Notes under the pieces: model-generated
What the model was told of the DNA's origin: nothing
Seen by the model: the letters and a program-made list of their open reading frames with translations, nothing else
The model's database searches: none
Made by a program: the position numbers and the translations under genes
Part shown: piece by piece, positions 7,025 to 23,419 of the stretch
How the letters are laid out: the number at the start of each line of letters is the position of its first letter
Numbering within the stretch: the first letter of the stretch is position 1
Assembly: GCA_023898425.1 (NCBI GenBank)
Contig: CP060222.1
Location: 1,000,801-1,032,800, forward strand
Source: Candidatus Saccharimonadota bacterium
Lineage (GTDB): Bacteria > Patescibacteriota > Patescibacteriia > 2-12-FULL-60-25
Length of the DNA: 32,000 nt
Reading direction: 5' to 3'

Positions 7025-7116
7025 GGAGAGGTGGCAGAGTGGTCGAATGCAACGGACTTGAAATCCGTCGTACGGCTTTAACCGTACCGAGGGTTCGAAT
7101 CCCTCCTTCTCCGCCA
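7025..7116 (+). tRNA. tRNA-Ser (anticodon UGA), CCA encoded
   Basis: Hand-folded. Acceptor stem GGAGAGG/CTTCTCC with one G-U pair. Anticodon arm ACGGA-CTTGAAA-TCCGT gives anticodon TGA. Long variable arm gtacgg-ctttaa-ccgtac. T-arm GAGGG-TTCGAAT-CCCTC, discriminator G, then CCA. Confidence 0.95.
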
Positions 7117-7249
7117 GCAAAAAAACACTCGATTAACGAGTGTTTTTTTGATTTAGCCACCTTTGGTTTTGACTAGTCACGAGTTATAAATAGTGAATTC
7201 GTGTATGATGAAAAAAGATACTTACTAAGGTATAGAGGAAAAACAAAAA
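7111..7249 (+). repeat. Direct repeat, left copy (attL-like)
   Basis: Starts at CCGCCA, the last 6 nt of the tRNA. It runs through the terminator hairpin and ~100 nt beyond, to 'gaggaaaaacaaaaa'. It matches 13393-13531 except for one A-run length difference, one substitution and one 1-nt indel. Confidence 0.9.
7119..7149 (+). terminator. tRNA terminator hairpin (part of the left direct repeat)
   Basis: A-run, cactcg-attaa-cgagtg, T7 run. An almost identical copy lies at 13401-13430. Confidence 0.75.
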
Positions 7250-7270
7250 TCCCGAATCCTTTCGGGATTT
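7241..7270 (-). terminator. Terminator for the recombinase gene (minus strand)
   Basis: atcccgaa-tcct-ttcgggat hairpin. Read on the minus strand it is followed by tttttgttttt. Confidence 0.6.
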
Positions 7271-7316
7271 TCTTGTTATTAACATTTTTCGGCTTGGTTG
7301 GCTTCTTTTATGAAGT

Positions 7317-8592
7317 TTATGGCAAGTTCGAACCGATTATTGCTCTTCCGCCCAAAAGACGAGATTTTTTCTTCCAAATCCTTTTGGCGAGAATAAGCTT
7401 TTTGCTTTTGGTCGCATATTCTGCTTGCGACAAACTGCCTTCCAAATGTAAATCAAGCAAGCGATCAAGTTTTGCCTCAATCTCTACAAGCTCATCTCGC
7501 AATTTTTGGGCGAAAGAGCTTTCCGCTTGGGCAGTTTTCATTTTTTCACTTTCAAAATAATTGATTGACGCATTAGCCCAAGCGGAAGACAAAGAAACTT
7601 TTTGATTTCCTCTTTTATTTGAGAAGTGATGATTTCTTCACGAACATATTTTTTGGTACAAGGATTTTTCCGTTTGGTGCAACGCAAATAGTTATGACCT
7701 TTTTGCGTTTCGGTGGTGATAAAACAACCACATTCGCCACAACGGAAAAATCCTCTATACACAAAAGGTTTTCAATTTCGGCGTTTTCGGTTTGGATTTT
7801 TTCATCATCACTTCTTGGCATAAATCAAAAGTTTCTTTGTGATAATCGGTTCGTGCTTTCCGTCATACATTTCGCCATTGTATTCAATCACGCCATAATA
7901 AATCGGGTTTTTGAGCATGTACTGATAATTTGAGACGGAAAGCATTTTGCCTTTCTTGTTTCAAGTCTAAGAGAATTGATAATCTTTCGGATTTGAGCGA
8001 GCGGGTATTCGCCAGTGGCATACATTTCAAAAGCCCGCTTGATATATTTTGCTTTTTCTTTATCAACCGCAATACAGCGGGCGTTTTTATCGTTTATATA
8101 GCCCAATGGTGCCCAAGCGAGGCCAAATGCCATTTCGCAATTTCTGGCGAATACCCCTCTTTATGTTTTCCGAAAGATTATCCACATAGTATTTTGATTG
8201 CCCAAAAGCGATGGACAACATAAATTTTCCTTGCGGTGTCGGATCAAACCAAAAGTCGGGAATTTTAGCGCGGATATTTTACCAGTATCAACAAGATAAA
8301 TTATTCGTCCGCCGTCTATGGAATTGCGAGCAAGGCGGTCGGGGTGCCACGCTAAAATTCCCTCGGCTTCATTTTCCTCTATGCGCGAGATCATTTCGTT
8401 AAAAATCTCTCTGCCCGGCTCTTTGGCGGTCTTACTTTCCACAAATTCACGGACGATATTCAAGCCCTCTTTTCTGGCGTATTTCGAAATTCAAAAGTTG
8501 CGCCTCAATACTGCGGAATTTGACGCTCTGGTTCGTCCGTGGATTTTCTTGTATATAGGAAAAACTTTTTGGTTTAAATTTATGTTGTCCAT
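7317..8592 (-). pseudogene. Large serine recombinase, multiply frameshifted
   Basis: The protein is recoverable only by hopping between minus-strand frames. N-terminal resolvase domain: 'YTRKSTDEPERQI', 'SIEAQLL', 'ILAWHPDRLARNSIDGGRIIYL'. Recombinase domain: 'WAPLGYINDKN...'. Zinc-ribbon: 'CGECGCFITTETQKGHNYLRCTKRKNPC'. C-terminal coiled coil: 'LDRLLDLHLEGSLSQAEY'. I count at least 8 frame breaks. Confidence 0.8.
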
Positions 8593-8803
8593 ATTGTTTT
8601 GAAATTAGCTTTTGGGCAATCAAAGAAAAATGCGTTCAACCTTTCGCTGAAAGCGTGGAAAAATTAGTTCTGAAAACTTCGTTTTCTCTGTTGTCGCACA
8701 GGAACTTCCACATTGCCGACCGCACTTTGTTTTTGGATTTCAAAAATGCCTTCAAAATGCGGAAAAAACCCCATGCCGAGGCGCTTCCGATTCCGATTTC
8801 AAG

Positions 8804-9012
8804 TTTTGGCGGTGTGTATTGGACGAAGTTCGAATGTATTTCGGACAAAATCCGCAGGATTTTGACGAATGACCTTTGCGCCTCGGCGCGCTCGACAAGC
8901 TCGCGCGGGGCAAAACCCAAAAATTTCCTATCATTTTTATTTGCGGCTCCCCCACACACCCCCGCCGAAAATGGATTGGTAAGGAAATTTTTGGTTTTGC
9001 TGCCGCCGCTTC
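8804..9012 (+). repeat. Long inverted repeat, left copy (IR-L)
   Basis: Its reverse complement aligns with 13201-13398 over ~200 nt, with a handful of substitutions and small indels. The outer end reads TGGCGGTG (= CACCGCCA on the other strand). Confidence 0.9.
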
Positions 9013-9053
9013 ATAAAATCATTGTTTTTGCACACTTGTATTATAACTTAACA

Positions 9054-9083
9054 TTGAGTCAAAACACAAGAGAATGATATAAT
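9054..9083 (+). promoter_or_regulatory. Promoter candidate for the controller/R-M operon
   Basis: TTGAGT, 18-nt spacer, then extended -10 TGaTATAAT, ending 27 nt before the C-gene ATG. Confidence 0.45.
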
Positions 9084-9110
9084 AACCGTGTTGATAAGTT
9101 TTCATACAAT

Positions 9111-9317
9111 ATGGCGAAATCCACAGCACAAAAATTTGGCGAGAACATGAAGAAAATACGGCTCGAGAAAGGTATGTCGCAAGGCGATATTTGCCGTGAG
9201 TTAGGGTTAGATCGGGCGTATATTAGTAATGTTGAGAATGGTAAGCAAAATCTAACAATTAGCACGATGGAAAAGGTCGCCAAAGTGCTTGGTGTGAGCG
9301 TAGATCAACTTTTTTAA
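9111..9317 (+). CDS. XRE-family HTH protein, likely R-M controller (C) protein
   Basis: Intact 68-aa ORF. 'IRLEKGMSQGDICRELGLDRAYISNVENGKQNLTISTMEKVAKVLGV' is a classic XRE HTH. It sits 10 nt upstream of the methyltransferase, which is the size and position of C proteins. Confidence 0.7.
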   Translation: MAKSTAQKFGENMKKIRLEKGMSQGDICRELGLDRAYISNVENGKQNLTISTMEKVAKVLGVSVDQLF

Positions 9318-9326
9318 AATAATTTT

Positions 9327-10318
9327 ATGGCAAAGAATACTCAAAGCAAATTTATGATCGTATCGCTTTTTGCCGGATGTGGCGGTCTGGACCTTGGCTT
9401 TGTTGGAGGTTTTGAATCAAACGGAAAAAAATATCAAAACATCCATTTGTAATTGATTGGGCCAACGACATAGACGAACCAGCGTGTAAAACTTTTAAAA
9501 ATTATTTCAAACACGATATTGTTTGCGGAAGCATCGTTGATATTTTGAACAATAAGCATGATTCCATGTTTGATGCGCCGCTACCCAAAAAAGCTGATAT
9601 TGTTCTCGGCGGTTTTCCATGCCAAGAGTTTAGTCATGCGGGAAAACGAAGAGGTTTCAATAGTGAAAAAGGACTTCTGTATCGCAGCATGGCCGAGGTC
9701 ATTCGCAGAACGAAACCAGTATTATTCGTGGCTGAAAATGTAAAAGGTCTTCTTACGATAGATAACGGCACAGCAATCGACATTATCAAAGATGATTTTG
9801 CGGGGCTAGGATATCACGTAAATCATAAATTGCTTCTTGCGGCGGACTATGGCGTCCCTCAAATGCGCGAACGAGTAATTATTATCGGGACTCGCAAGAA
9901 TGTGCTGCCTAGATTTGAGGATAGTGACTATCCAAAACCAACCCATAAGGGCAAGCAGCATGTTTCAGTCAAAGAAGCATTTGGCGATTTGGAAAATATA
10001 AAAGAAGGTGATTTTCCGAATCATCACTGGTCAAAAGCAAGGAAAAACAAAGGACAAGGAAATGGAGTAATTGACCCTAAAAACCAGGACCCACAATGCG
10101 AACCGAACACCATGGCAATATCGAATACCATTGGAATGGCAAACGACGACTTTCAGCTCGAGAGGCCGCAAGAATCCAATCTTTCCAGATGATATGGTAT
10201 TTTGCCATCTACATCGCAAGCATACAAACAAATTGGCAATGCCGTTCCTCCTGTTTTGGCGTGGCACATTGCGAAATCAATTCGATCATTTCTCGATAAG
10301 AACTTGAAACAAGTATGA
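9327..10318 (+). pseudogene. dcm: DNA (cytosine-5) methyltransferase, frameshifted
   Basis: Motif I 'FAGCGGLDLGF', motif IV 'GGFPCQEFS', 'ENV', 'RERVIIIG' and motif X 'QIGNAVPP' are all present but spread over three frames. The first break is at the A7 run 9425-9431. Confidence 0.85.
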
Positions 10319-11300
10319 TCTACGCCAAAAAGAAAAATCCGAGTGAAGAAATTTTTTGAAAATTCTTGAAGTTTCAAAGAATAAACTTGTTTCTAAGTTG
10401 AGGACTGAAAAACCGCTTCCAAATTCAAGTGATTTTGAAGTTTTGGTTTGTGAAGTAATGATAGAGGTGGCAAAAGGCACCGAGTTTGAAGGGACTATAC
10501 GGCAAACTGGAATCGCGGCATTCCCCGACATTGTGGCAAACGGCTATTTTGGTGTGGAAGTTAAAATGACAATAAAGGACCACTGGCATTCAACGGGCAA
10601 TAGTGTTTTTAGAATCACTCATGAAGCAGATGTTCAGAGAATTTACATTATGTTTGGGAAAATGGGAGGCGAACCAGACGTGAAATATCGGCTATATCAG
10701 GAATGTTTACCAGAAGTTAGCGTAACTCACTCTCCTCGCTATCGCATAGACATGAATTTGCCGGAAGGTGAATCCATTTTTGATAAGATCGGCGTTTCCT
10801 ATGATGAGTTAAGAACGAGTGAAGATACTATTAAACAAATAAAATCATACTATCGAGGCCAACTAAAAGAAGGCGAAGGTCTGTGGTGGATTGATGAGGA
10901 ATCGAAGCACCATCACCAGTGATTAAGCAGTTTCGAACACTGGATCCCACTGACAAAGAAAAGTTTAAGGTTGATTGTATGATTTTCTTTCCAGAATTAT
11001 TTAAGAATCGGGCAAACTACGATCGAGCCGCCACATATCTTGTTACTGAATTCGGGGCAGTGTCAGCAAGCCTGAGAGATGAATTTAGCGCGGGAGGACG
11101 ACGGGAAGTCTTGATAGCACGTGAGGAGGAGAAACGTTTCGCAAGTGCTTTCCCAGCTACGCGAAAGTTACGCCCCAGGAATAGCTAGCCGAATCAATGA
11201 GATAGACGAAGATTTATTGAAATTCTATTGGCAAGTTCCTTCCATTGAGGCAAATAGAATCGAGCAATGGAAAGAACTTGTGGATAGGGACGCATGCTAG
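10315..11300 (+). pseudogene. Type II restriction endonuclease candidate (PD-(D/E)xK-like), frameshifted
   Basis: The ATG at 10315 overlaps the methyltransferase stop (ATGA). The frame breaks at the T6 run 10352-10357. The core contains 'FPDIV...GVEVKMT' (D...ExK). Further frame breaks occur near 10920 and 11180. The end coordinate is approximate. Confidence 0.55.
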
Positions 11301-11344
11301 TGGTCTTGGTGCCGAATCTCCCTCAGAAGTTTTTCAATCTGGCT

Positions 11345-11790
11345 ATGAAGAAGCGAACTCGCAATAAACTAAGCCGTGATTTTTCAAAGGAAAGAGATTT
11401 AGACAAACTAACTATCCGAGAAAGATCACGACGAATGTCGCTCATACGCTCAAGATCAACAAAATTTGAGCAAGATTTTATTGCCACTCTCAAAAAAACA
11501 AATTCGCAAAACTTTTTACTACTAATGACAAGGGTGTTTTAGGTAAGCCCGATATTGCTTTTAAGAAGCACAAAGTTTGCGTTTTTTCTCGATAGTAACT
11601 TCTGGCATGGCTGGCAATATCCACGTTGGAAGCATTTACTCAAAAATGATTTCTGGCGTGAAAAAATTGAGCGTAACAGAAAACGAGACAAAAGGTGACA
11701 CGAAAACTTTATGCTGAAGGTTGGACCGTGTTGCGTTTTTGGGAACATCAGCTTAAGAAAGATCAAACTGTTTGCGTGCAAAAAGAATAG
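11345..11790 (+). pseudogene. vsr: Very-short-patch repair endonuclease, frameshifted
   Basis: 'RSRRMSLIRSRSTKFE', 'GKPDIAFKKHKVCVF', 'LDSNFWHGW', 'FWREKIERNRKRD' and 'GWTVLRFWEH' lie in three frames. The breaks are at T6 (11582-11587) and A4 (11690-11693). Confidence 0.8.
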
Positions 11791-11839
11791 TGGACACGCT
11801 TAAATAACGGCAAGGCTTGCCCTATAATAAAGCAATATC

Positions 11840-12487
11840 ATGAAACTTACCGAGCTTAAGAAAATTGAATTACCCAGAGAGAAAATGGAGAAGTACGGTG
11901 CAAAGCGCCTCAAAACTTTTGAGTTGCTAGCGATTGTGCTTGGCTCGGGAATCAAAGGATGTAATGTACTTGAACTTGCGCGAAAAAATAGAAAAACTTA
12001 TAGCTCTAAAATCGGTAAATAACGTCACGATTGATGATTTACGAAAAATTCGTGGACTTGGAAAAACAAAGGCAATTCAAATACTTTCCGTTATTTCCCT
12101 TGTGGATCGCCTTGGGAGCGAGCGTAGTGCTGAATTGTTATCAGGAAAAGATATATGGAATTTATGTGCGGACTTTCGTTCATCGAAAAAGAACACATGG
12201 TGGCGTTTTACCTCGACACTCAACAAAAATTGATCGAAAGGCGTGTTATCTCAGTAGGAACCCTTGACGCTTCACTTTTACACCCACGAGAAGTCTTTGA
12301 GCCTGCTTTGCAATTAGCAGCGGCAGGGGTTATTCTAGCGCATAATCACCCTTCGGGAAATCTCGAGCCTTCAGATGAGGATATCGCAGTCACAAAAAGA
12401 ATAGCTGACGCCGGAGATCTGCTTGGGATTAATCTTGTTGATCATATCATTGTTTCGGATAAAGAATTTCGAGTCATGAATCTGTAA
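11840..12487 (+). pseudogene. radC: RadC-like JAMM-domain protein, frameshifted
   Basis: N-terminal HhH region 'LLAIVLGSGIKG..VLELAR' and 'LRKIRGLGKTKAIQI'. C-terminal 'LLHPREVF...AHNHPSGNLEPSDEDI' JAMM motif. The three ORF fragments lie in different frames. Confidence 0.8.
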
Positions 12488-12667
12488 GGAATTGGCGAAA
12501 CAGGGTTGAAAAAAATAATAAAATAATTTAGAATACCAATGAAAACGAGGCGTTAAGCCCGTCCCGTGTTCTTGCAAAAGCCAAAATGACTATCTTCATA
12601 TCGCGTCTGGCGAGAAAGGAGGTAGTCGAACCTTTCTCGATATTATTAACTTAATTCGAGATGTTCT

Positions 12668-12886
12668 ATGGCAAATTCAAATTGCAAGAACGATGCGCCT
12701 GGCATGAAAGGCTGCCGTACTCGAAACCAAAATGGATTGTTGCGCGACAAGCGTGATGACACCCATATTGGTACAATCGAGAAACAATATGGCATTGACC
12801 TTGGTGTCAGGTCTGATATGCAACTCGGGACTTATCTTGAGAAGCATAACATCGAATCTCTGAACGATCTTATCACGGGTCGCTAA
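12668..12886 (+). CDS. Small hypothetical protein (72 aa)
   Basis: Intact ORF, basic at the N-terminus, containing 'DTHIGTIEKQYGIDLGVRSDMQLGTYLEKHNIESLNDL'. A perfect hairpin terminator follows. Family not recognised. Confidence 0.5.
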   Translation: MANSNCKNDAPGMKGCRTRNQNGLLRDKRDDTHIGTIEKQYGIDLGVRSDMQLGTYLEKHNIESLNDLITGR

Positions 12887-12896
12887 GGGAAGCGGG

Positions 12897-12930
12897 GACG
12901 AGGCTAACGCCTCGTCTTCATTTTCATTTT
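12897..12930 (+). terminator. Rho-independent terminator
   Basis: gacgaggc-taac-gcctcgtc followed by ttcattttcatttt. Confidence 0.7.
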
Positions 12931-13200
12931 ACCTCAATTTGAATTTTCTTGCTTATTTCTCTGTGCATAAAAACGAAGCCACAGAGAGCGAACACGAAGC
13001 AAGCACCGAGCAGGCATCGCGAACGAATGTGAGCGGCCAATGCGAGGTGCCTGCAAAGTGTGAGAGGACTACCGAACTACCACCAAACGCGGAGACGAGA
13101 GCGCCTCGGGCCGACGCAAGCGACGGAGAAAAGGCGGGCGTAAAACCGGCAAAAGTGCTAAAATACACTTATTAGCCTTTTTGAGAGAGTGAAGCGGCGG

Positions 13201-13398
13201 CAGCAAAACCAAAAATTTCTTACCAATCCATTTTCGGCGGGGGTGTGGGGAGCCGCAAATAAAAAATGATAGGAAATTTTTGGGTTTTGCCTGCCGCGCG
13301 AAAGCTTGTCAGAGCGGCCGAGGCGAAAAAGGTCATTCGTCAAAATCCTGCGGATTTTGTCCGAAATACATTCGAACTTCGTCCAATACACACCGCCA
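13201..13398 (-). repeat. Long inverted repeat, right copy (IR-R)
   Basis: Reverse-complement match to 8804-9012. The outer end CACCGCCA merges directly into the right direct repeat. Confidence 0.9.
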
Positions 13399-13531
13399 GC
13401 AAAAAACACTCGATTAACGAGTGTTTTTTTGATTTATCCTACCTTTGGTTTTGACTAGTCACGAGTTATAAATAGTGAATTCGTGTATGATGAAAAAAGA
13501 TACTTACTAAGGTATAGAGGAAAAACAAAAA
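13393..13531 (+). repeat. Direct repeat, right copy (attR-like)
   Basis: Near-identical to 7111-7249, including the CCGCCA core, the terminator hairpin and the tspO leader. Confidence 0.9.
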
Positions 13532-13533
13532 AG

Positions 13534-13940
13534 ATGAACACATATAATTGGTACTCGCAACTCGTAAGACCCAGTTGGGCACCACCGTCTTGGGTGTTTG
13601 GACCTGTGTGGACGGTGCTGTATGCGATAATTAGTGTTTCTTTTGGTACAGTTTTTTATAAGGTATTCACTGATAAGATTGCATGGACGGTGGCTTTGCC
13701 ATTTGCCTTAAATCTCGCTTTTAACGCGGCTTTTTACGCCTCTTCAGTTTGGTTTAAAAAACAATCTATTAGCGGCGATTGATATTGTGCTCGTTCTGTT
13801 TACATTGGTTTGGGCTTTTTTATGCCGTATGGACGGTATTACCTGAGCTTCGTTGGGTTGTTTATGTAAATATTCCTTATTTGCTCTGGGTATTATTTGC
13901 GACCGTTTTGCAGTTGACAATCACCTATTTAAATCGATAA
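13534..13940 (+). pseudogene. tspO: TspO/MBR (tryptophan-rich sensory protein) family, frameshifted
   Basis: 'WYSQLVRPSWAPPSWVFGPVWTVLYAII', then 'TPLQFGLKNNLLAAIDIVLVLFTLVWAF', then 'PELRWVVYVNIPYLLWVLFATVLQLTITYLNR', each in a different frame. The breaks are at T5 (13731-13735) and T6 (13816-13821). Confidence 0.8.
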
Positions 13941-14036
13941 GTCACGCTTTAGCCACGTTCTTGCTGGGCTTGTTTTTTCTGTATAAATAGCCTATGATCC
14001 TTGGATCTTTAGTCTATAGTATTATTTTTAGGTGTT

Positions 14037-14561
14037 ATGAAGATATTGGATTTTCCTCATGCCTCACAAACATATGAGTATGATTGCGGACCAACGGTAT
14101 TGCAGGGAATCCTGACATACTACGGCGCCGAAGTAAGAAAAGAAAAAATTTTTAAATGGGCGCGTACGAACACGAGACACGGAACTCTTACAAAAGGAAT
14201 GTTGAAGGTTCTTGATCGTTTTTCATTAGAGTATGATTCTCGTCTCATGACAATCGGAGATATTAAGGAATATATAGATAAGGATATTCCTGTTATTTTG
14301 CTTTTGCAGGCATGGAATGAAAAAGATCAGCTTTATACCGACCGTTTTGATGATAGTCATTGGGTTACGGCAATTGGCTACAATGAGGACACAATTCTTT
14401 TTGAAGATCCTTATGCCTTTGCTCGCGTCTATCTCAAGCAGAGCGAGTTAGTAAAACGTTGGCACGGCAGAGAGGGTCGCAAACGTATTTTGCAGCACGG
14501 TATCGCTGTTTACGGAAAAGACCCTGCCTATCAGTCACAAAGAGTGATTCACATGGATTAG
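14037..14561 (+). CDS. Peptidase C39-like (papain-fold cysteine peptidase) domain protein
   Basis: 174 aa. 'QTYEYDCGPTVLQGIL' provides the catalytic Cys context and 'DSHWVTAIGY' the catalytic His context, as in C39-like domains. No fused ABC transporter. Confidence 0.65.
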   Translation: MKILDFPHASQTYEYDCGPTVLQGILTYYGAEVRKEKIFKWARTNTRHGTLTKGMLKVLDRFSLEYDSRLMTIGDIKEYIDKDIPVILLLQAWNEKDQLYTDRFDDSHWVTAIGYNEDTILFEDPYAFARVYLKQSELVKRWHGREGRKRILQHGIAVYGKDPAYQSQRVIHMD

Positions 14562-14613
14562 CGCAAAAGTGCTATGATACAAGCAATATATTTTTAATTT
14601 CTTGTATTAGCCT

Positions 14614-15558
14614 ATGATTTTACTTTGGTCATGTGTCTTTTTTGTCTCGCTGGCTATTTTAGTAAAAGGCGCCGATTGGCTTATTGAAAGTGCCGAAAAA
14701 ATCGGTTTAGCTGCTGGGCTTTCTCCGTTTATCGTGGGCGTTACCATCGTTGGTATGGGGACGTCGTTTCCTGAGCTTATCTCGTCTTTTGCAGCGACGA
14801 TGCGAGGCGTGACAGATGTTGTTGTAGCAAATGCCATTGGTTCTAATATTGCGAATATTCTGCTTGTTCTTGGGCTCTCGGCTGTTATTGGTAAAAAACT
14901 TTCTGTAACAAAAAGCCTGATTGATTTAGATCTGCCTCTATTAGCGATGAGTGCCGTTTTATTATTGGGCGTTGTTTGGGATAAGCAGGTAACGTTTGGT
15001 GAAGCGATTATTCTGCTATGTTCTTATGGTATTTATCTTCTCTATACAACAAATCACACAGATCAAGAGAATGCCGTTAAGAAGGCTTTATCCCGTGCTG
15101 CACGACCAAAAGCTTCATTTAAAGACGTTATTTTACTTATTGTTGGTGTCGCCGCGCTCTCTTTAGGTGCTAAATATCTTGTAGACGCGCTTATTCAACT
15201 ATCGTCATTACTAAATATTGGAACTGGTGTTATTGCGATTACGGCAGTTGCTGTTGGTACCTCTTTGCCAGAATTGCTCGTTTCGGTAAAAGCAGCAATG
15301 CAAAAAAAATCTGAAGTTGCACTCGGTAATATCTTTGGTTCAAATATCTTTAACTCATTTGTTGTTGTGGGGTTACCGGCTCTCTATAAAACGCTCGAAG
15401 TCGACCCTCAAACCTATATGATTGGTTTGCCGGCGATGATGTTGGCAACACTTCTCTTTGTGATCTCTGGTATATCGCAGCAAATTTATCGATGGGAGGG
15501 AGGTCTATACCTCATGCTTTATATCCTCTTTACCGTGAAGCTCTTTAATTGGTTCTAA
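14614..15558 (+). CDS. Ca2+/cation antiporter (CaCA family, YrbG-like)
   Basis: Two alpha-repeat motifs: 'GMGTSFPELISSFAA...GSNIANILLVLG' and 'GTSLPELLVSVKAA...GSNIFNSFVVVG'. About 10 TM helices. Confidence 0.85.
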   Translation: MILLWSCVFFVSLAILVKGADWLIESAEKIGLAAGLSPFIVGVTIVGMGTSFPELISSFAATMRGVTDVVVANAIGSNIANILLVLGLSAVIGKKLSVTKSLIDLDLPLLAMSAVLLLGVVWDKQVTFGEAIILLCSYGIYLLYTTNHTDQENAVKKALSRAARPKASFKDVILLIVGVAALSLGAKYLVDALIQLSSLLNIGTGVIAITAVAVGTSLPELLVSVKAAMQKKSEVALGNIFGSNIFNSFVVVGLPALYKTLEVDPQTYMIGLPAMMLATLLFVISGISQQIYRWEGGLYLMLYILFTVKLFNWF

Positions 15559-15564
15559 TACGCT

Positions 15565-16236
15565 ATGAAATTTACCTTCTCTCCATCGGCAACAAGCGAA
15601 GATAAATCGCTTGCAGTAGAAAAACTCATTACGCATAGTACGCCTAGCTCAGATTTTTATGTCATGGTGATTTTGGCGATCGCGATGGCTACCATCGGTT
15701 TATTGTTAGACAGCGCCTCGATTATTATCGGAAGCATGCTAATCTCGCCCATGCTCTATGTCTTTTTAAGTCTTTCATTGGGCTTTAGTTTATCGGATAA
15801 AAAACTCATCAGAAGGTCTGCGATCTCGATTATTAAGGCAACGGTTGTAGGTATCATTATTTCAGCGTTGATCACCTTATTTGTGAGGGATGTGACAAAT
15901 ACGTCTGAGATCCTTGCTCGTACTAATCCTTCTCTCGCGTATGCAGCGGCGGCTTTTATTGCAGGATTCGCAGCGGCATTTACACTCACCAAACCTACGT
16001 TAAGTGAAACATTGCCTGGTGTTGCTATTGCTGTTTCTATCATCCCTCCGGTTGCTGTTTCTGGTATTGGGCTTGCGACGCTCCAGTGGTCATTATTTCG
16101 CGGATCTATTGTCCTCTTTATCATTAATATGGTATCTGTTTTTACTGGTAGCTTGGTTCTTTTTCTTTTATTGGATATTCATTCAAAAAAAGACGTTGCC
16201 CAACAAACGTTAAAAGAAGAAGATAAAAAGCTTTAG
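15565..16236 (+). CDS. DUF389-family membrane protein
   Basis: Hydrophobic protein with 'IIGSMLISPML', resembling the DUF389 signature (xIGAMLIAPLMxP). It follows the antiporter after a 6-nt gap. Confidence 0.5.
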   Translation: MKFTFSPSATSEDKSLAVEKLITHSTPSSDFYVMVILAIAMATIGLLLDSASIIIGSMLISPMLYVFLSLSLGFSLSDKKLIRRSAISIIKATVVGIIISALITLFVRDVTNTSEILARTNPSLAYAAAAFIAGFAAAFTLTKPTLSETLPGVAIAVSIIPPVAVSGIGLATLQWSLFRGSIVLFIINMVSVFTGSLVLFLLLDIHSKKDVAQQTLKEEDKKL

Positions 16237-16308
16237 GAGATATTGTCAAAAATCACCCTATATTCTAGGGTGATTTTGATTTGGACTTTCGCAACTGTCG
16301 GAGGAATC

Positions 16309-17082
16309 ATGCGTCCATATATCGGAATTACGGATTTTACTACATCCGAGCAAGTTGATTTGTTGATGCGTTACTTTGAGGATTATCCAAACACGAAGCG
16401 AATGCTTCATGTTGGTGTCATGACAAGCTATAAACAGCTGCACGGATTACCAAGTAAATGGCAAAACGTGTTTCCGAAGCCATCGGAAATCGCGGATATT
16501 TTTCAACGAGACGATGTCTATAATTGTTTGCACTATGCTGACTATGATGGGCATCCAGGTCTACGACAAACGCTCGGCAAAGCCATCATTAGCGGTGGTC
16601 CAAAACTACATTCGTTGCAATTGGATATGATTTGGCCTGATCCAGATGCTATTCGAAGCGCGATCGAAGACACAGGTAATGTCACTGATGTGATCTTGCA
16701 AATCAATAAGTTTGCCATGGGGCAATGCCAGGAGCAGCCACATTTGGTTGCGAGGCGATTGAAAAGTTATCAAGGGATCGTCACGAGGGTTCTGCTTGAT
16801 AAGAGCATGGGCCGTGGCGCTGGGCTTGATGCAAGACTACTAACGACTTACGCTCGTGCTATTGTAGAAACCATTCCTGAGATTGGTCTTGGTGTCGCGG
16901 GAGGACTTGGTCCAAGCACTCTCTATCTCCTGGACCCGCTCATCAAAGCGTTTCCAAATATTAGTATCGACGCACAAAGTCGACTTCGACCGAGTGGTAG
17001 CGCGCTTGCTGAGCCTATCGACTGGGATATGGCTGGACTCTACCTCAAACGTAGCATCGAGTATTTCGCTGCAAATGCCTGA
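16309..17082 (+). CDS. TIM-barrel protein resembling phosphoribosylanthranilate isomerase (TrpF-like)
   Basis: The ATG at 16309 is preceded by GGAGGAATC. The pattern 'IGITDF...HVGVM...LQLDMIWPDP...VLLDKSMGRGAGLD...LGVAGGLGPSTL...ISIDAQSRLR' follows the PRAI strand and loop order. The ORF track's TTG start at 16243 is less likely. Confidence 0.4.
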   Translation: MRPYIGITDFTTSEQVDLLMRYFEDYPNTKRMLHVGVMTSYKQLHGLPSKWQNVFPKPSEIADIFQRDDVYNCLHYADYDGHPGLRQTLGKAIISGGPKLHSLQLDMIWPDPDAIRSAIEDTGNVTDVILQINKFAMGQCQEQPHLVARRLKSYQGIVTRVLLDKSMGRGAGLDARLLTTYARAIVETIPEIGLGVAGGLGPSTLYLLDPLIKAFPNISIDAQSRLRPSGSALAEPIDWDMAGLYLKRSIEYFAANA

Positions 17083-17088
17083 TGATAC

Positions 17089-17126
17089 CCCTACTTACGT
17101 AACGGTAAGTGGGGGTTATTTCTTTA
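17089..17126 (+). terminator. Rho-independent terminator
   Basis: 11-bp stem cccctacttac/gtaagtggggg followed by a T-rich tail. Confidence 0.65.
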
Positions 17127-17157
17127 CAAAAAACCTAAAATGGAGTATTTATCAGCC

Positions 17158-18159
17158 ATGAAATACCAGGTGCTACTCTTCTATAAGTACGTCACTATTG
17201 CTGATCCGCAGGCTTTTGCTGAGTGGATACGTGAACGTGGCACAACGCTCGGTTTTAAGGGTAGAATTTTGGTTGCTGAAGAAGGGTTAAACGGTATTCT
17301 TGAAGGTGAGATATCTCAAACAGAGATCTTTGCGAAAGAACTTCTTGAGAACCCGTTATTTTCTGACATGAACATTAAGCGTAGCGAAGGCAATGGGGAG
17401 GCATTTCCTCGTTGGTCGGTGAAGGTGCGTCATGAAATCGTTGGTACACAGTTTTCTTATGATGAGGCAGATCCACGTGTTCGCACAGCGCCGCATCTTT
17501 CTCCAGAAAAGTTACGCGAGATGTATGAACGCGACGAAGATTTTATCGTGGTTGATATGCGTAACTCTTTTGAGATCGCCTCAGGTAAATTTAAGAAGAC
17601 GGTAGACCCTGGAATGGTCGCATCACGTGATTTAAAAGAAGCCGTCGTAAAGCTCGAAAAATATAAAGACAAAAAAGTCATCACCGTTTGTACGGGTGGC
17701 GTGCGTTGCGAAAAAATGTCAGCTTATCTTTTAAGTAAAGGCTTTAAGGATGTATATCAGCTAGAGAACGGTATCCATGCCTATATGGAAAAGTATCCGG
17801 GCAAAGATTTTATGGGCGCGCTTTATACCTTTGATGATCGTATCGTAATGGACTTTGGAGGAGATCGCGAAATCATTGGTGAATGTCATCTTTGTAAAGA
17901 AAAAACGGAGCGCTATATCAATTGTGCGAATGATGAATGTCACTTACATATTCTCGTTTGTGAGACTTGTTCGCCCGATCGTAAAAACGCGTATTGCTCA
18001 AAAAAGTGCAAAGCCCATAACGCGGCACTTGCACGTAAGGCAAAGCTCGATGCCTGGTTAGCACCAGCAAAAAAGCAACTTCAACGTTTACGTTATCGTG
18101 CTATCAAGCGTTATCACCGAGCCCTGTGGTTCATTCGTCGTTTGAAAAAATCCGCCTAG
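17158..18159 (+). CDS. trhO: Rhodanese-domain tRNA uridine(34) hydroxylase (UPF0176/YceA family)
   Basis: 'YQVLLFYKYVTIADPQ...GRILVAEEGLNGILEG' plus the rhodanese active-site loop 'CTGGVRCEKMSAYL', and a C-terminal Cys-rich tail. An alternative start is at 17140. Confidence 0.8.
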   Translation: MKYQVLLFYKYVTIADPQAFAEWIRERGTTLGFKGRILVAEEGLNGILEGEISQTEIFAKELLENPLFSDMNIKRSEGNGEAFPRWSVKVRHEIVGTQFSYDEADPRVRTAPHLSPEKLREMYERDEDFIVVDMRNSFEIASGKFKKTVDPGMVASRDLKEAVVKLEKYKDKKVITVCTGGVRCEKMSAYLLSKGFKDVYQLENGIHAYMEKYPGKDFMGALYTFDDRIVMDFGGDREIIGECHLCKEKTERYINCANDECHLHILVCETCSPDRKNAYCSKKCKAHNAALARKAKLDAWLAPAKKQLQRLRYRAIKRYHRALWFIRRLKKSA

Positions 18160-18171
18160 GCGGATTTTTTG
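18145..18171 (+). terminator. Rho-independent terminator overlapping the trhO stop codon
   Basis: aaaaaatccgcc-taggcggatttttt perfect hairpin with a T-run. Confidence 0.75.
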
Positions 18172-18192
18172 TTTGATTGCTATAGTGTGCTC

Positions 18193-20133
18193 ATGAAACA
18201 CGACCAGCATGTCATGCCAGCGCAACATGACCATCGCTCTACAGCAAAAGTAGCAAAACACGAGCTCTGGGTATCCGGATTGATATTTGTCTATGTAATG
18301 ACAGCAATGATATTGCCGATACCACTTTGGTCCGTTATTGTTTTGGGTTGGTATGTTGTCCTAAAAAGCGGCTGGACATTTCATATGCGCGCTATTCAGG
18401 CGATACAAAATAGACGGGCAAACATGGATGTTTTGGTATCGATGGCAACGTTATCAGCGATGATTTGGAGTACGACAGCCTTGTTTGTCCCGCAACCACA
18501 TTTTGTTGAGAGTGCCGCCGCTATTATCTTCTTTGTATTGCTTGGAATCTATTTAGAGGATCGTCAGCGTAGCAATGTTCGAGAAGCTGTAGGGCTTTTA
18601 TTTGCGCAACATCCCGTCTTGGCGCATCGTAAGCAAGATGATGGTAGTTGGTATGATCTTGCTGCGGCAAATTTACGAGTTGGTGATATTTGTTTAGTAA
18701 AAACAAGTGAGACGGTTCCACAAGATGGTGTTGTTATAAGTGGTCATTCGACGGTAGATGAATCAATGTTTACGGGCGAGTCACTACCTTCAGAAAAACA
18801 ACGAGGTGACACGGTATACGGAGGGACTATTAATAGCACCGGTTCATTTGAGATGGAGGTGAGTGCCGAAGCGGGGATGGGTGTTTTTGATCAAATGGTG
18901 CAAATTGTAGAAAAGGCACTGGCGAGCAAAGCCCCAATTGAGAAACTCGCAGATCGTATTAGCGCGGTATTCGTTCCTATTGTCATCGTTTTTGCTACCG
19001 TGACGTTAATTCTTTGGTTGTATGTTTCTAATGATTCTGCGATGGCAGTACGTAATGCCATTGCCGTACTTGTTATTGCTTGTCCATGTGCATTAGGTAT
19101 CGCTACGCCTGCTGCAGTACTTGTTGGTACCGGAGCTGGCGCTAAAAAAGGTATCTTTATTAAAGAAGGGTCTGCGCTCGAAGCGGCAAAAGATATTGAT
19201 CTTGTTCTTTTTGATAAAACAGGAACGTTAACCGAAGGTCATCCATCGGTGACAGATACTTTTGTGATAGATGGCCAATCAGAAAAGCTTGTATTATTGC
19301 TTGCAGCAAGTTTAGAGTCCCGTTCTGAACACCCACTCGGTGGTGCGATCATTGAATCGCAGAAGAACATGAATGAGCCCCTTCTATCAATTGAACAGTA
19401 TGAGGCAATACCAGGGCGTGGTCTCAAAGGTGAATATGAAGGTAAGACGTTGCTTGTAGGTAAAGAATCGTTAATCACGGATACTTCTATTGCTATTGAT
19501 GCTGGTTTCCAGAAAAAGACCGAGCAGGCAAGAGCGCTTGGTAAGACGGTTGTTTTTGTTGCGTATGATGGTGCGCTTATTGGCGCCATTGCGATCGCAG
19601 ACCGTATACGCGAGGATGCAAAGATCGCCGTTGAGCGCTTGCGGGCCATGGATATTGATGTGGCATTAGTGACGGGTGATCATGAGGCTTCTGCTCAAGC
19701 GGTAGCGGCACAGGTCGGTATCACACAAGTATTAGCAGATACATTGCCAACAAAAAAAGCTGAGGTGGTAACAAAACTTATTGAGAAGGGGCATCATGTC
19801 GCTTTTGTAGGGGATGGTGTGAATGATGCACCAGCCCTTGCTTCGGCAAATCTCGGTATTGCAATGGGGAGTGGTACCGATATCGCCAAAGCTGCCGGAC
19901 AAATGGTATTGATGGGAGGTTCACCTTCAAAGGCAGCGGATGCGATAATTCTTTCGCGTTTCACGTTTCAGACGATTAAACAAAATCTCTTCTGGGCTTT
20001 TGGTTATAATGTCGTCGGTCTCGGATTAGCTGCTTTTGGATATGTTCATCCGGCTGTTGCGGGGCTCGCAATGGCGCTTTCGAGCATTAGTGTATTGCTA
20101 AATAGCTTACGAGTGGCGAAGGCGCACCATTGA
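18193..20133 (+). CDS. copA: Heavy-metal (Cu+/Ag+-type) P1B-type ATPase without N-terminal HMA domain
   Basis: 'CPCALGIATP', 'DKTGTLT', 'GDGVNDAPAL' and 'TGES'. The ATG at 18193 is preferred because the track's start at 18169 lies inside the upstream terminator. The N-terminus is His-rich: 'MKHDQHVMPAQHDH'. Confidence 0.85.
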   Translation: MKHDQHVMPAQHDHRSTAKVAKHELWVSGLIFVYVMTAMILPIPLWSVIVLGWYVVLKSGWTFHMRAIQAIQNRRANMDVLVSMATLSAMIWSTTALFVPQPHFVESAAAIIFFVLLGIYLEDRQRSNVREAVGLLFAQHPVLAHRKQDDGSWYDLAAANLRVGDICLVKTSETVPQDGVVISGHSTVDESMFTGESLPSEKQRGDTVYGGTINSTGSFEMEVSAEAGMGVFDQMVQIVEKALASKAPIEKLADRISAVFVPIVIVFATVTLILWLYVSNDSAMAVRNAIAVLVIACPCALGIATPAAVLVGTGAGAKKGIFIKEGSALEAAKDIDLVLFDKTGTLTEGHPSVTDTFVIDGQSEKLVLLLAASLESRSEHPLGGAIIESQKNMNEPLLSIEQYEAIPGRGLKGEYEGKTLLVGKESLITDTSIAIDAGFQKKTEQARALGKTVVFVAYDGALIGAIAIADRIREDAKIAVERLRAMDIDVALVTGDHEASAQAVAAQVGITQVLADTLPTKKAEVVTKLIEKGHHVAFVGDGVNDAPALASANLGIAMGSGTDIAKAAGQMVLMGGSPSKAADAIILSRFTFQTIKQNLFWAFGYNVVGLGLAAFGYVHPAVAGLAMALSSISVLLNSLRVAKAHH

Positions 20134-20175
20134 AAAAAGAAGAGGTCTGTGTTATGAACGCGCTGGAGGTGTCCA

Positions 20176-20745
20176 ATGGCAGACGTGTCCACTGAATGTT
20201 CAGAGGCGAAGAATGAAGATCGAGAGATCGATTTATCGCATAACCAAAAAAATCTCATATGGATGCTGTTTATCGGATATTACTTAACTGAGATAGCAGT
20301 TTTTGAGCTCTTGGTTTTACTGAGTGTTTTTTCATCCGATTTGCTCTTTCCTCTAAGCGCGCTCAGTGTTGTCGCTATAATTGCTTGGTGGATAATCCCT
20401 GGTCAAAATGGCTTTTTGGGACTATGGGACACGGGTATTGAATGTTGGACTACACTTTTTTGGCAACAGGTTGTTCTTTCAGCGCTTAGCGGGTGGCTAA
20501 GCCTCATTGCTTTGTTCCTTCTTCACCTGCCTTTTTTTGTGATGAATGAAGATGTTAGCATATCAGACACTTTCTTTCGAGAATGGTTGTACTCCAATTT
20601 TCACATCGTGCTAACTCTCGTTCTCCTCTGCGTCCTAAAATACAAAGGTCTGTTCTCAGAAAAAGCGAGCAGAGAATCTTTTGTATATTTTATGTTCATT
20701 TTTGGCTTCAGAACATTCTTCGTTCTAAGCAGAAGTCTCTTTTGA
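20176..20745 (+). CDS. Hypothetical membrane protein
   Basis: 189-aa ORF with ~5 hydrophobic helices. No recognisable motif. Confidence 0.45.
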   Translation: MADVSTECSEAKNEDREIDLSHNQKNLIWMLFIGYYLTEIAVFELLVLLSVFSSDLLFPLSALSVVAIIAWWIIPGQNGFLGLWDTGIECWTTLFWQQVVLSALSGWLSLIALFLLHLPFFVMNEDVSISDTFFREWLYSNFHIVLTLVLLCVLKYKGLFSEKASRESFVYFMFIFGFRTFFVLSRSLF

Positions 20746-20790
20746 CAGACTCTACGCGATGAGGTATTTTCTGGTCTTAAACCAGGAGAT

Positions 20791-21204
20791 ATGTCATCGC
20801 TTTTTCAGATTAGTGAAAAACAGCACCTCGGTGCGTTATTTCTTACAAAACTCGCGTCTTTAGATGAGGGGGTCTATTTGCGTATTAGTGATGCTGCTAA
20901 AGAAATGAAGGCTTCTGAGTCGTATCTCGAAGAAGTGGCAGCCCTATTAAAAAAGGCTGAGCTTGTAAAAGCAAAAACTGGTCCTACCGGGGGATATCAG
21001 TTGGCAAAAATACCCGCAGAAATCACAACGCACGATATGGTGACAGCGCTCGAAGGCGAAGTTTCTCTCGTGCCTTGTCTTTCTCATCAAAAGGGATTGT
21101 GCGGAATGGAAGCAGGCTGCAAGAGTCGTTCGCTCTGGCATGGCTTACAAAAGAACATCGTTTCTTCGCTTCAATCAACGACGCTCGCTGACCTCATCAA
21201 ATAA
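20791..21204 (+). CDS. Rrf2-family transcriptional regulator (IscR/NsrR-like)
   Basis: 'ISDAAKEMKASESYLEEVAALLKKAELVKAKTGPTGGYQLAK' is an Rrf2-type wHTH. Cys residues at 'VPCLSHQKGLCGMEAGC'. It lies directly upstream of nifS. Confidence 0.8.
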   Translation: MSSLFQISEKQHLGALFLTKLASLDEGVYLRISDAAKEMKASESYLEEVAALLKKAELVKAKTGPTGGYQLAKIPAEITTHDMVTALEGEVSLVPCLSHQKGLCGMEAGCKSRSLWHGLQKNIVSSLQSTTLADLIK

Positions 21205-21205
21205 T

Positions 21206-22432: not shown

Positions 22433-22433
22433 T

Positions 22434-23117: not shown

Positions 23118-23131
23118 TATCCCATTCGTCT

Positions 23132-23359: not shown

Positions 23360-23380
23360 GGAAACATTTTAATAAACAAA

Positions 23381-23419
23381 AGAGCGCCCGGATCCAGGTT
23401 GGATCACGGGCGCTTTTTA
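23381..23419. terminator. Bidirectional terminator between convergent genes
   Basis: agcgcccg ... cgggcgct stem with an inner gatcc/ggatc stem, T-rich on both sides. Confidence 0.65.

Follow-up and report, generated by a model that had tools for sequence, protein, structure and literature searches.

Large serine recombinase (LSR) integrases such as A118/LI, Bxb1, phiC31, TnpX and Ccr combine Resolvase, Recombinase and Zn ribbon domains with a catalytic RKST motif and act on asymmetric attP and attB sites with a short core and a shifted DNA motif, and in the LI integrase the zinc-ribbon motif is displaced by 5 bp between attB and attP (PMC3783163). Archaeal tyrosine integrases of the SSV1/pTN3 type have attP inside int, target tRNA genes and give tRNA-to-tRNA chromosomal inversions (PMC5495485, PMC8371274). 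Mobile restriction-modification (R-M) units with a long target duplication were defined by an insert of <20 kb, a duplication of >30 bp and no other mobility genes (Furuta et al. 2010, PMC2853133). The Tycheposons of marine bacteria are small cargo islands at tRNA genes including tRNA-Ser(UGA), mostly of the tyrosine-recombinase type with partial-tRNA direct repeats and in a minority with large serine recombinases (bioRxiv 10.1101/2020.12.28.424599).

The window analysed here, a stretch of 32,000 nucleotides, holds an island of an LSR family found in at least 596 species-representative genomes, mostly of Patescibacteria. The islands of this family have tRNA genes, mostly those for tRNA-Ser, as their targets and enter them at the 3' end, and in 71 of the 91 LSR copies a convergent tRNA lies at or overlaps the 3' end of the LSR gene. 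Their layout is tRNA, core and X, followed by the convergent LSR gene, an inverted P-core-X, the cargo, and finally P, core and host. The reading frame of the LSR crosses the core, and an integrated element has therefore three sites: attL (tRNA-core-X, in which X is antisense to the end of the LSR gene that encodes the C-terminus), an intact attP in inverted orientation (P-core-X) that separates LSR and cargo, and attR (P-core-host). Complete triplets were found at 16 loci. CCGC is the core common to them, and what the three sites share is no more than CCGC(CA), 4-11 nt. In these triplets the distance of a GTTCGAA-like motif from the core is 18 nt in the tRNA and 23 nt in P, a 5-bp offset which matches the attB/attP zinc-ribbon shift of the LI integrase (PMC3783163), and the window follows the same pattern. 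By these comparisons strand exchange takes place inside the core, with the T-arm and acceptor stem of the tRNA as the attB half-site and the P arm of the element as that of attP.

The X inverted repeat occurs at about 60 loci, and both nested pairs, overlapping by the core, are present at 21. The two nested pairs, around the LSR and the cargo, are 97-100% identical, and the arms are homogenised within loci. Two kinds of C-terminal tail are found among the LSR clusters, one antisense to the tRNA and the other conserved and encoded by P (CFLDEVRTFFEENP); up to the core, P0084 and P0085 have 99.6% identity. The LSR is linked to either tail (tRNA or P) in nature, where both cargo orientations occur as well, and at one locus (L077) the LSR lies between two inverted tRNA-Ser genes.

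The island LSR shares with the known LSR integrases its domains and RKST motif, the short core, the asymmetric sites and the 5-bp shift (PMC3783163). Unlike them, the family targets the 3' end of a tRNA gene, has its attP inside the LSR ORF, so that integration swaps the C-terminal tail, and keeps in each copy an inverted intact attP with two nested long inverted repeats; no phage or plasmid relative of the LSR above ~31% identity was found. As with SSV1/pTN3, integration into a tRNA gene alters the integrase gene and inversions between tRNA genes are potentially possible (compare L077), but the enzyme superfamily and chemistry are different, the exchange concerns the C-terminal tail alone, and the element retains a spare copy of the 3' end, which lies upstream and is inverted. 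The Tycheposons are likewise small cargo islands at tRNA genes and include a minority with LSRs, but nested inverted repeats or an ORF-spanning attP are not described for them in the text consulted (bioRxiv 10.1101/2020.12.28.424599). The architecture of the family appears to be undescribed so far.

The features of the window are given below (P and X, arms of the element; B', host arm).

7025-7116, + strand: tRNA-Ser(UGA), a hybrid of CGA-type ends and UGA-type anticodon and variable arms
7111-7116, + strand: core copy 1 (CCGCCA), preceded by the tRNA and followed by host arm B', an attB-type configuration
7111-7249, + strand: left copy of the direct repeat, made up of the core and 133 nt of host arm B', which holds the terminator hairpin of the tRNA and the leader of tspO
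7246-7271, no strand: conserved hairpin AAAATCCCGAA-TCCT-TTCGGGATTTT inside the LSR coding region, codons ENPERIRDF
7276-8592, - strand: LSR gene, broken by window-specific indels and a clean ORF once corrected
8698-8806, + strand: upstream X arm, in which a fragment coding for an LSR C-terminus is repeated in sense orientation (..NFHIADRTLFLDFKNAF..ASDSDFKFWR)
8807-9013, - strand: core copy 2 (TGGCGG, 8807-8812) and proximal P arm, the left arm of the ~207-nt inverted repeat
9111-9317, + strand: HTH_3 protein, 94-97% identical to HTH genes of clade 2 islands
9327-12487, + strand: cargo, all genes frameshifted
9327-10299, + strand: C5 DNA methyltransferase (cargo)
10356-11300, + strand: ORF, candidate restriction enzyme (cargo)
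about 11294-11700, + strand: Vsr (cargo)
11840-12487, + strand: RadC (cargo)
12971-13189, + strand: distal backbone segment, common to clade 2 islands
13190-13398, + strand: distal P arm with core copy 3 (13393-13398) at its end, the right inverted-repeat arm and left half of attR
13393-13531, + strand: right copy of the direct repeat, made up of the core and the original B' arm and running on into tspO
13535-13940, + strand: tspO, equal to the intact 134-aa allele but for two +1 T insertions, both in T runs

The inverted repeat, the broken genes, the LSR without its 3' end and the foreign tRNA body had gone unremarked in the initial annotation.

That annotation had described an island at tRNA-Ser framed by near-identical direct repeats, and pairwise alignment of 7111-7249 with 13393-13531 agrees, with one substitution and two single-base indels (A7 versus A6, and one extra T) over 139 nt. 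The repeat begins, as was also stated there, with the last 6 nt of the tRNA-Ser (CCGCCA), runs through the terminator hairpin (CACTCGATTAACGAGTG and a T-run) and the tspO leader, and ends 3 nt 5' of the tspO ATG (13535). The GTG ORFs at 7201 and 13483 do share the artificial N-terminus pointed out earlier (MYDEKRYLLRYRGKTK); they are by-products of the ORF finder, and the intact TspO of related contigs starts with MNTYNW. An empty site was sought in related strains and found in three contigs (L094-L096), which carry NUDIX, tRNA-Ser, one repeat copy, intact tspO and a C39 peptidase; the left copy of the window differs from this single copy by 0-1 mismatch and 0 gaps. Occupied and empty sites differ by the element, the right junction lying at the core and the left repeat beginning at it, and in other strains the same tRNA carries different islands with the identical P-arm-CCGCCA type of junction. 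The insert is a real strain-variable insertion beside tRNA-Ser, and the strain-specific segment of the window ends at 13993.

The right junction is a textbook attR of the LSR family and the right 139-bp copy is its host arm. The inverted attP is also normal, since 8698-8806 and 8807-9013 form an intact P-core-X site inverted relative to the tRNA, and at the tRNA an attB-like site stands instead of attL. Set against the canonical layout, the upstream X arm is present and the cargo lies between inverted P arms ending in the core, with the HTH gene by the proximal arm, whereas the 3' arm at the tRNA is replaced by host sequence, the left repeat copy taking the position of the LSR 3' arm X. The inverted repeat (8807-9013 / 13190-13398, ~207 nt) is 100% identical over its outer 71 nt, with CCGCCA at the tips. 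The HTH counterparts of clade 2 occupy the same position, divergent from the LSR, and the HTH_3 gene is a backbone gene of the element and not a private R-M controller. In the upstream X arm, at about 8783-8786, clade 1 and clade 2 sequence meet in a mosaic junction; judged by such comparisons the insert is a rearranged, mosaic (clade 1 / clade 2) island of the LSR family, upon which several independent events could be superimposed.

The large serine recombinase and R-M module that had been placed between the repeats are confirmed, the unassigned ORF at 10356-11300 being the likely restriction enzyme, and a 139-bp duplication is as unexpected for this enzyme class as had been said, the att sites of 16 relatives sharing only 4-11 nt. 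The suggestion of a mobile R-M unit with a true long target duplication, in which breaks staggered 139 bp apart are filled in after insertion, is however highly improbable. There is one copy in the empty site and two around the R and M genes in the occupied one, the R-M genes lie within a >30-bp direct repeat and a ~200-bp inverted repeat as in the described units, and the size, duplication and gene content fit the formal definition, but that definition leaves out mobility genes (PMC2853133) and here a linked LSR with att sites is present. Both types of repeat are explained by the att sites of the LSR and the duplication of these sites. Furthermore, the right junction is the normal P-core junction of the family, the left one cuts the LSR ORF, and the insertion of about 80 relatives with a mere 4-11-nt shared core contradicts a target duplication of this kind.

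The stitched LSR protein has Resolvase, Recombinase and Zn_ribbon_recom domains (PF00239, PF07508, PF13408), all above the Pfam cut-offs; the motif YTRKSTDEPERQ is recovered after indel correction. Without correction the protein has 77% identity with intact homologs of 516-545 aa, and the DNA is 86-89% identical to intact clade 1 LSR loci. A Hin/Gin-type switch was rejected: the small serine invertases have ~190 aa and short inverted sites on either side of a promoter or gene segment, and here the enzyme is an LSR of ~500 aa and the inverted repeats are of 120-430 nt with att-type sites. A tRNA island of the tyrosine-integrase type was likewise rejected, because the island has no phage-integrase domain and the tRNA contributes no more than 6 nt to the repeat, whereas in such islands the direct repeat consists of the 3' part of the tRNA.

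The LSR gene lacks its normal 3' end. Homology to canonical LSR genes ends at 7246, at the hairpin, beyond which the sequence of the relatives runs for ~153 nt up to the tRNA; in the window these last ~153 nt, from core to hairpin, are swapped for the second host-arm copy (7117-7249). The ORF stops at a tandem TAATAA (7276-7281) directly before the hairpin, so that ~55 conserved C-terminal residues and the core-spanning tail are missing. The inner edge of the left repeat (7249/7250), its sole anomalous edge, has no core and falls at the outer base of the hairpin, in an A run with 4-5 nt of microhomology, and by its sequence it would be an illegitimate junction with only that microhomology. The earlier idea of an element carrying a copy of its target is correct as an account of the structure now present, but does not hold as a property of the element: the duplication of B' is absent from the loci of about 80 relatives compared and must be a secondary accident of the window copy.

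The tRNA beside the left repeat is also altered. It agrees with the tRNA-Ser(CGA) of other strains at this locus in the first 26 nt (5') and the last 28 nt (3'), whereas the anticodon and variable arms are of the UGA type and identical to the native tRNA-Ser(UGA) of another locus (L111), which indicates that the body now stems from this tRNA-Ser(UGA) paralogue. In none of the other strains seen does the insertion locus carry such a body.

We consider it probable that the window holds a rearranged, mosaic tRNA-targeting LSR island whose 139-bp repeat is a break-repair scar that integration did not produce, the left copy being apparently a secondary duplicate of the attR host arm that the recombinase did not make. 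The tRNA body swap and the B' copy would form a single repair patch, from about tRNA position ~27 to the hairpin. The process may have started with a double-strand break at the core, after abortive cleavage by the LSR, or at the hairpin; repair would then have copied ectopic templates, first the paralogous tRNA and second the core together with the host arm, taken from attR or a sister attB, before the end was joined through the A-run microhomology. The identity of the tRNA body with that of L111, the stop of LSR homology at the hairpin and the A-run junction support this proposal, which requires two template switches. A variant-A allele at the locus (CCGCCA-TAG-hairpin-TTATTA) suggests that the truncated TAATAA allele is old, and the order of events may therefore differ from the repair scenario.

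It is unlikely that the repeat arose instead by capture of the target and homologous re-integration, in which a canonical island was excised aberrantly when its LSR hairpin region recombined illegitimately with the tspO leader at the end of the latter, in the manner of a specialised transducing phage, and the resulting circle with P-core-B'(1-133) entered an empty tRNA-core-B'-tspO site by homologous recombination over 139 bp. This corresponds to the second suggestion of the initial annotation. The order tRNA-core-B'-LSR...P-core-B'-tspO is predicted exactly, empty sites with the same 139 bp are present in the population, and the mosaicism indicates that the element has recombined with other elements. 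Nevertheless two rare events are required, the swapped tRNA body is left unaccounted for, the circle would have no normal attP at that position and an LSR already truncated, and no circle junction is on record.

The attB-like site at the tRNA could also be derived from a flipped isomer with the LSR reading towards the cargo, if gene conversion carried the cargo inverted repeat outward over the core and overwrote the LSR 3' arm with an inverted host-arm copy, and recombination of attL with the inverted attR copy then flipped the LSR cassette to give attB and an inverted attP. The sites of the window (attB, inverted attP and attR) are indeed the products of inverted attL x attR, and the known linkages and cargo orientations together with the homogenised arms agree with such a history. 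We regard it as distinctly unlikely, given that the postulated intermediate has no example among the loci compared, that the truncated LSR would have to catalyse the final step or be supplied in trans, and that the tRNA body swap is again unexplained.

Every island gene and tspO are interrupted by frameshifts, which are confined to 7117-13993. The recombinase ORF, besides its stop ~55 residues early, has 12 window-specific indels over the 1541 nt of the LSR region, about 4 of which shorten a homopolymer by one base; the right repeat copy and tspO, 600 nt in all, have 4 indels and 1 mismatch, and the right flank has 0 gaps in the 9.4-10.6 kb compared. Being mostly in homopolymers and confined to this segment, the indels are probably assembly errors, most likely of a minority haplotype, and their high rate points to a low-quality and probably low-coverage haplotype. 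The left copy, the tRNA body or both could then be artefacts of haplotype mixing in a strain-heterogeneous long-read assembly, an explanation favoured by an indel rate far above that of the flanks and by the co-occurrence of empty-site and other alleles in related samples. We find it quite improbable, since the join is collinear and at a 4-5 nt microhomology, of which overlap assemblers make no use, a tRNA(UGA) body that no other strain seen has at this locus cannot have come from its majority reads, and the right repeat copy has its own errors, so that the two copies were assembled independently.

The family may tentatively, at odds that we place below even, represent an undescribed kind of LSR element, in which the recombinase gene is an invertible cassette and a spare inverted attP with the native 3' end makes the integrase subject to a phase switch. 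Were this so, a flip between the X arms would exchange the tRNA-antisense tail of the LSR for the conserved native one, the spare attP would permit inversion of the cargo and tRNA-to-tRNA chromosomal inversions, and the core may hold a palindromic GC or CG crossover by which the polarity of the sites is lost. In engineered one-way inversion switches attB and an inverted attP flank the invertible segment, which is the layout of the LSR cassette in the window. Excision of a canonical element would give a circle in which two unique segments are set apart by two site copies in inverted orientation, as in the yeast 2-micron plasmid with its FLP recombinase and inverted repeats. The island differs from both in that the recombinase gene is inside the invertible segment, that no replication functions were seen in it, and that its flipping is deduced from population polymorphism only. 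The window copy would then correspond to the state of the cassette flanked by attB and inverted attP.

The single tRNA gene that ARAGORN detects in the window is tRNA-Ser(UGA) at 7025-7116, and its final 6 nt, CCGCCA, form the 5' edge of a 139-bp direct repeat. Alignment of 7111-7249 with 13393-13531 over 139 nt gave one substitution and two single-base indels, bearing out the near-identity reported in the initial annotation. The repeat includes the hairpin CACTCGATTAACGAGTG with its T-run and stops 3 nt ahead of the tspO ATG (13535). The N-terminus MYDEKRYLLRYRGKTK, common to two GTG-started ORFs and already suspected to be artificial, is a by-product of those ORFs. The serine recombinase and restriction-modification (R-M) module placed between the repeats are indeed found there, in the following set of genes between the two copies:

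Between the repeat copies, minus strand: large serine recombinase (LSR)
Between the repeat copies: HTH_3 protein
Between the repeat copies: C5 methyltransferase
Between the repeat copies: ORF without a family match, likely a restriction enzyme
Between the repeat copies: Vsr and RadC

Two features had been overlooked. The first is an inverted repeat of ~207 nt (8807-9013 / 13190-13398), whose outer 71 nt are 100% identical and both of whose tips are CCGCCA; the second is a series of frameshifts splitting every island gene and tspO. The P arm, the element's attP half-site, contains (8913-8998 and 13205-13290) an internal imperfect palindrome with 35-nt arms and repeated CAAAACC(C)AAAAATTTC motifs, both of which could be candidate protein-binding sites. 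An Rfam scan of this arm gave a chance-level match only, and a scan of the window matched the tRNA alone.

Thirteen public contigs encode a C39 peptidase identical in sequence to the downstream one of the window (14037-14561); an exact look-up of the NUDIX neighbour and a scan of JGI metagenomes with a 22-mer from the 139-bp repeat gave no match. The empty site was reached by following an intact TspO protein (P0121, 134 aa, 99% identical to the frameshift-corrected TspO of the window) to ENA contigs. Three of these (L094-L096) carry, in order, NUDIX, tRNA-Ser(CGA), CCGCCA, a single 133-nt spacer, tspO and C39, which is the one-copy tRNA-Ser/tspO site whose existence had been proposed as a check, and L095 matches the region of the left copy over 166 nt with 1 mismatch and 0 gaps. 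The insertion at tRNA-Ser is real. The locus is otherwise polymorphic. L004 and L007 have NUDIX, tRNA-Ser(CGA), a 68-nt spacer and C39, with neither tspO nor island, and six further contigs (L001, L003, L005, L008-L010) hold another island with type I/IIG R-M genes, whose right junction, ...GTTCGAACTTCGTCCAAAAAACA-CCGCCA-host, has the same arm and core as window 13370-13398. A reading of the repeat as sequence that follows tRNA-Ser(UGA) at some other locus was excluded: L094-L096 place it after tRNA-Ser(CGA) at the same locus, and the true UGA locus, on L111, has a different flank. The allele without tspO (L004 4234-4307, L007 and the right flank of the L001/L003/L005 islands) reads CCGCCA-TAG-AAAATCCCGAA..TTCGGGATTTT-CTTATTA and has the same hairpin and antisense TAATAA as the truncated LSR end of the window; this allele resembles the remnant of an earlier LSR copy that was truncated in a similar way.

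The family exposed by the repeat is of greater interest than the 139-bp repeat itself. The stitched window LSR has thousands of homologs of 500-545 aa, and the family counts thousands of metagenomic proteins. When one genome was scanned for each species, at least 596 relatives came to light, mostly in Patescibacteria with some in Elusimicrobia and other groups, so that the family is very common in the two named lineages. In L011, L012 and L013 (L012 has two copies in a 1.06-Mb genome) the LSR gene reads into a tRNA-Ser gene on the opposite strand, and a convergent tRNA lies at or overlaps the LSR 3' end in 71 of 91 copies examined. Targets are mostly tRNA-Ser genes of all four anticodons, with subclades on tRNA-Glu, Gln, Asp or His. 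Self-comparison revealed two abutting pairs of inverted repeats in nearly all loci with enough flank. The X repeat (120-134 nt, mostly 99-100% identical, seen in ~60 loci) has one arm just 5' of the LSR, while the other is the LSR 3' coding end, stopping at the tRNA 3' end. The P repeat (150-430 nt, 97-100% identical) has one arm adjoining an X arm and the other 1.5-6 kb away, bracketing the cargo. Both pairs were seen in 21 loci, with an overlap of 4-11 nt. Small ORFs 5' of LSR genes (e.g. window 8636-8959, minus strand) were rejected as spurious, being antisense to the duplicated LSR 3' end.

In the orientation of the tRNA, the family layout is tRNA-core-X-(LSR, facing the tRNA)-inverted[P-core-X]-cargo-P-core-host, and 16 loci have the complete triplet of sites with the common core CCGC(CA). 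The T-loop motif GTTCGAA of the tRNA begins 18 nt from the core and a GTTCGAA-like motif in P begins 23 nt from it. A 5-bp shift between attB and attP half-sites is predicted by the LI integrase structure (PMC3783163); because the motif shift fits this prediction, we read the three sites as attL, inverted attP and attR. Identity of the P and X arms is near-complete within loci versus 75-90% between loci, which points to ongoing homogenisation or frequent re-creation. The nested inverted repeats could not be derived from any series of conservative recombination steps at the three cores; conservative recombination there never makes duplications. Among the metagenome-assembled contigs of L014-L093, many stop before the LSR start, at a distance of 100-500 nt from it, and the length of many metagenomic LSR contigs is no more than ~2 kb. 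Such breaks are expected if identical inverted-repeat arms break short-read assemblies, and the family may account for the frequent contig breaks at these loci in such small genomes.

Against this layout, the right 139-bp copy is ordinary host DNA and the left copy is the anomaly. The DNA of the window LSR is 86-89% identical to canonical LSR genes from 8786 down to 7246, the outer base of a hairpin within the ORF. In relatives the homology goes on for ~153 nt, across the X arm as far as the tRNA, a stretch whose place in the window is taken by 133 nt of host arm (the tRNA terminator hairpin and tspO leader). After correction of indels the LSR is a clean ORF ending at a tandem TAATAA just before the hairpin, and the junction 7249/7250 falls within an A run common to both partners. 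The first of the three sites is thereby attB-type (tRNA-core-host arm), the second is an intact inverted attP (8778-8844) and the third a normal attR. The tRNA also deviates, with a UGA body in the window (anticodon and variable arms, 7051-7088) versus a CGA body in all other strains. A UGA tRNA identical to that of the window is present at another locus with other flanks in a related metagenome (L111, 425-515), which suggests that paralogous tRNA-Ser genes underwent ectopic conversion. The two anomalies adjoin each other and make up a single patch that extends from tRNA position ~27 as far as the hairpin.

No second core-to-hairpin replacement by host arm was found among the other loci of the family, and a search of these loci for host-arm duplication returned only four long direct repeats, all from tandem or nested island arrays. 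The 139-bp repeat is probably a one-off scar. The initial annotation had offered, as one of two readings, a pattern like that of mobile R-M units inserted with long target duplication; a true duplication of this kind is at odds both with what the family shows and with how PMC2853133 defines the class, and is very unlikely. We infer instead that the left copy arose by repair synthesis after a break adjoining the tRNA. The break would have occurred beside the tRNA, at the core or at the hairpin; repair would have copied the paralogous tRNA first and then the core plus host arm, and would have been finished by microhomology joining. An assembly artefact is a quite improbable source of the structure, as the join is collinear, the microhomology used is just 4-5 nt, and majority reads of the locus cannot have supplied the UGA body. 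Two further rivals to repair synthesis are aberrant excision followed by homologous re-integration, and expansion of the inverted repeat followed by attL x attR inversion. A long direct repeat round a serine-recombinase island need not mean a new insertion mechanism: here it would mark a scar left by repair, whereas the real att core measures 4-6 bp.

The window element is a mosaic of two LSR island clades. Clade 1, to whose loci the DNA identity is 86-89%, accounts for the LSR body (7246-8786) and most of the upstream X arm, and clade 2 for the last ~24 nt of X, the core, both P arms, the HTH gene and the distal backbone segment (8783-9329, 12971-13398). The HTH protein has 94-97% amino acid identity to clade 2, and clade 2 LSRs are only ~57% identical to those of clade 1. 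The changeover from one clade to the other falls at 8783-8786, within the X arm, where the two clades share a similar patch.

The hairpin within the LSR ORF (window 7246-7271), ~50 codons ahead of the core (QENPERIRDF in clade 1), is the inner edge of the X arm and the exact place of the anomalous junction. In the LSR genes of L011-L110, and among 41 distinct sequences, its stem is maintained by compensatory changes despite a changing peptide (CCCGAA/TTCGGG to CCCGTC/GACGGG; CCC/GGG to CAC/GTG), with whole-stem replacements across clades. In clade 1 the hairpin could act as a terminator of tRNA read-through, because TTTTCTT comes after it in the tRNA-sense direction.

The LSR reading frame spans the core, where TGGCGG encodes W-R, and homolog clusters show two types of tail beyond it: a tRNA-antisense read-through (WRRGRDSNP...) and a conserved CFLDEVRTFFEENP... 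encoded by the P arm. P0084 and P0085, two homologous LSRs, match at 99.6% as far as the core, and only their tails differ. The P-encoded tail is probably the native C-terminus, because it is conserved across LSRs that are 55-75% identical. Contigs with P tails (L100-L110) include L102, in which the gene immediately 5' of the LSR is a tRNA-Ser on the same strand. The same P arm adjoins cargo in opposite orientations in L103 versus L104-L109, all encoding the identical LSR P0108, with defence cargo comprising HTH, SNF2/PLD, an Eco57I-type methylase and AAA_13. In L077 (53-2044) an LSR lies between two inverted tRNA-Ser genes. All these signs, which are at the population level, suggest that inversion of the LSR cassette and of the cargo may occur and that tRNA sites may react with the internal attP. 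L012 (6393-11587) has two islands in neighbouring tRNA-Ser genes, and a tandem or nested array in L057 comprises three LSR units and a 191-nt direct repeat. L077, L012 and L057 suggest that chromosomes are rearranged around tRNA-Ser genes by the islands.

LSR islands with R-M cargo are an already known kind, and this family carries R-M and other cargo between tRNA genes. ORFs in 23 P-bounded segments include many with R-M functions, among them N6/N4, D12, EcoRI-type and C5 methylases, HpaII, GmrSD, ResIII, type III methylases and Mrr; RadC, LexA-like proteins and T5orf172; and also enolase, an aminotransferase, a Na/Ca exchanger, CrcB, an MFS transporter and a sulfatase. Phage and plasmid collections contained no LSR relative above ~31% identity, and IMG/VR no close one, with two meaningful matches only. 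Searches of the full-text literature found no description of this LSR/tRNA island family nor, for LSRs, of a tRNA target combined with an ORF-spanning attP and the two alternative C-termini that it gives, of an inverted attP retained in every integrated copy with nested repeats, or of a conserved intragenic hairpin. Among the closest analogues are engineered attB/attP inversion switches. Others are SSV/pTN3-type tyrosine integrases (PMC5495485) and the R-M rearrangement classes of Furuta et al. (PMC2853133). The family is a natural system for studies of LSR directionality and inversion, and a source of LSRs with a well-defined short attB in a universally conserved tRNA arm.

The frameshifts were compared across the locus. 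The right flank (13993-24561) is 99.3-99.65% identical to L001, L003 and L005 with 0 gaps in 9.4-10.6 kb, and the 600 nt at 13393-13993 differ from L096 by 1 substitution and 4 indels. In tspO both frameshifts are an extra T in T runs, with zero substitutions. Over the 1541 nt of the LSR region the window has 12 indels of its own, versus 0-1 in seven relatives; ~4 of the 12 are one-base homopolymer contractions and the rest are short (1-4 nt) and outside such runs. The excess of indels is limited to the strain-specific segment 7117-13993. Decay explains this pattern less well than do consensus errors in a strain-specific haplotype with low coverage in a long-read assembly, and uneven consensus quality in the source assembly is probably behind the indels; the segment 7117-13993 therefore deserves caution. 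The island as a decayed pseudogene cluster was dropped, given the many indels in homopolymer runs, the lack of substitutions in tspO and the gapless 10-kb flank. A frameshift near an A-run (KKDLEEKI) cuts several homologs (P0024, P0032 and P0038) short at ~425 aa, and their last residues are ..RAIIGSNL, the same out-of-frame reading as in the window; this recurrent truncation may reflect slippage or a recurrent sequencing error.
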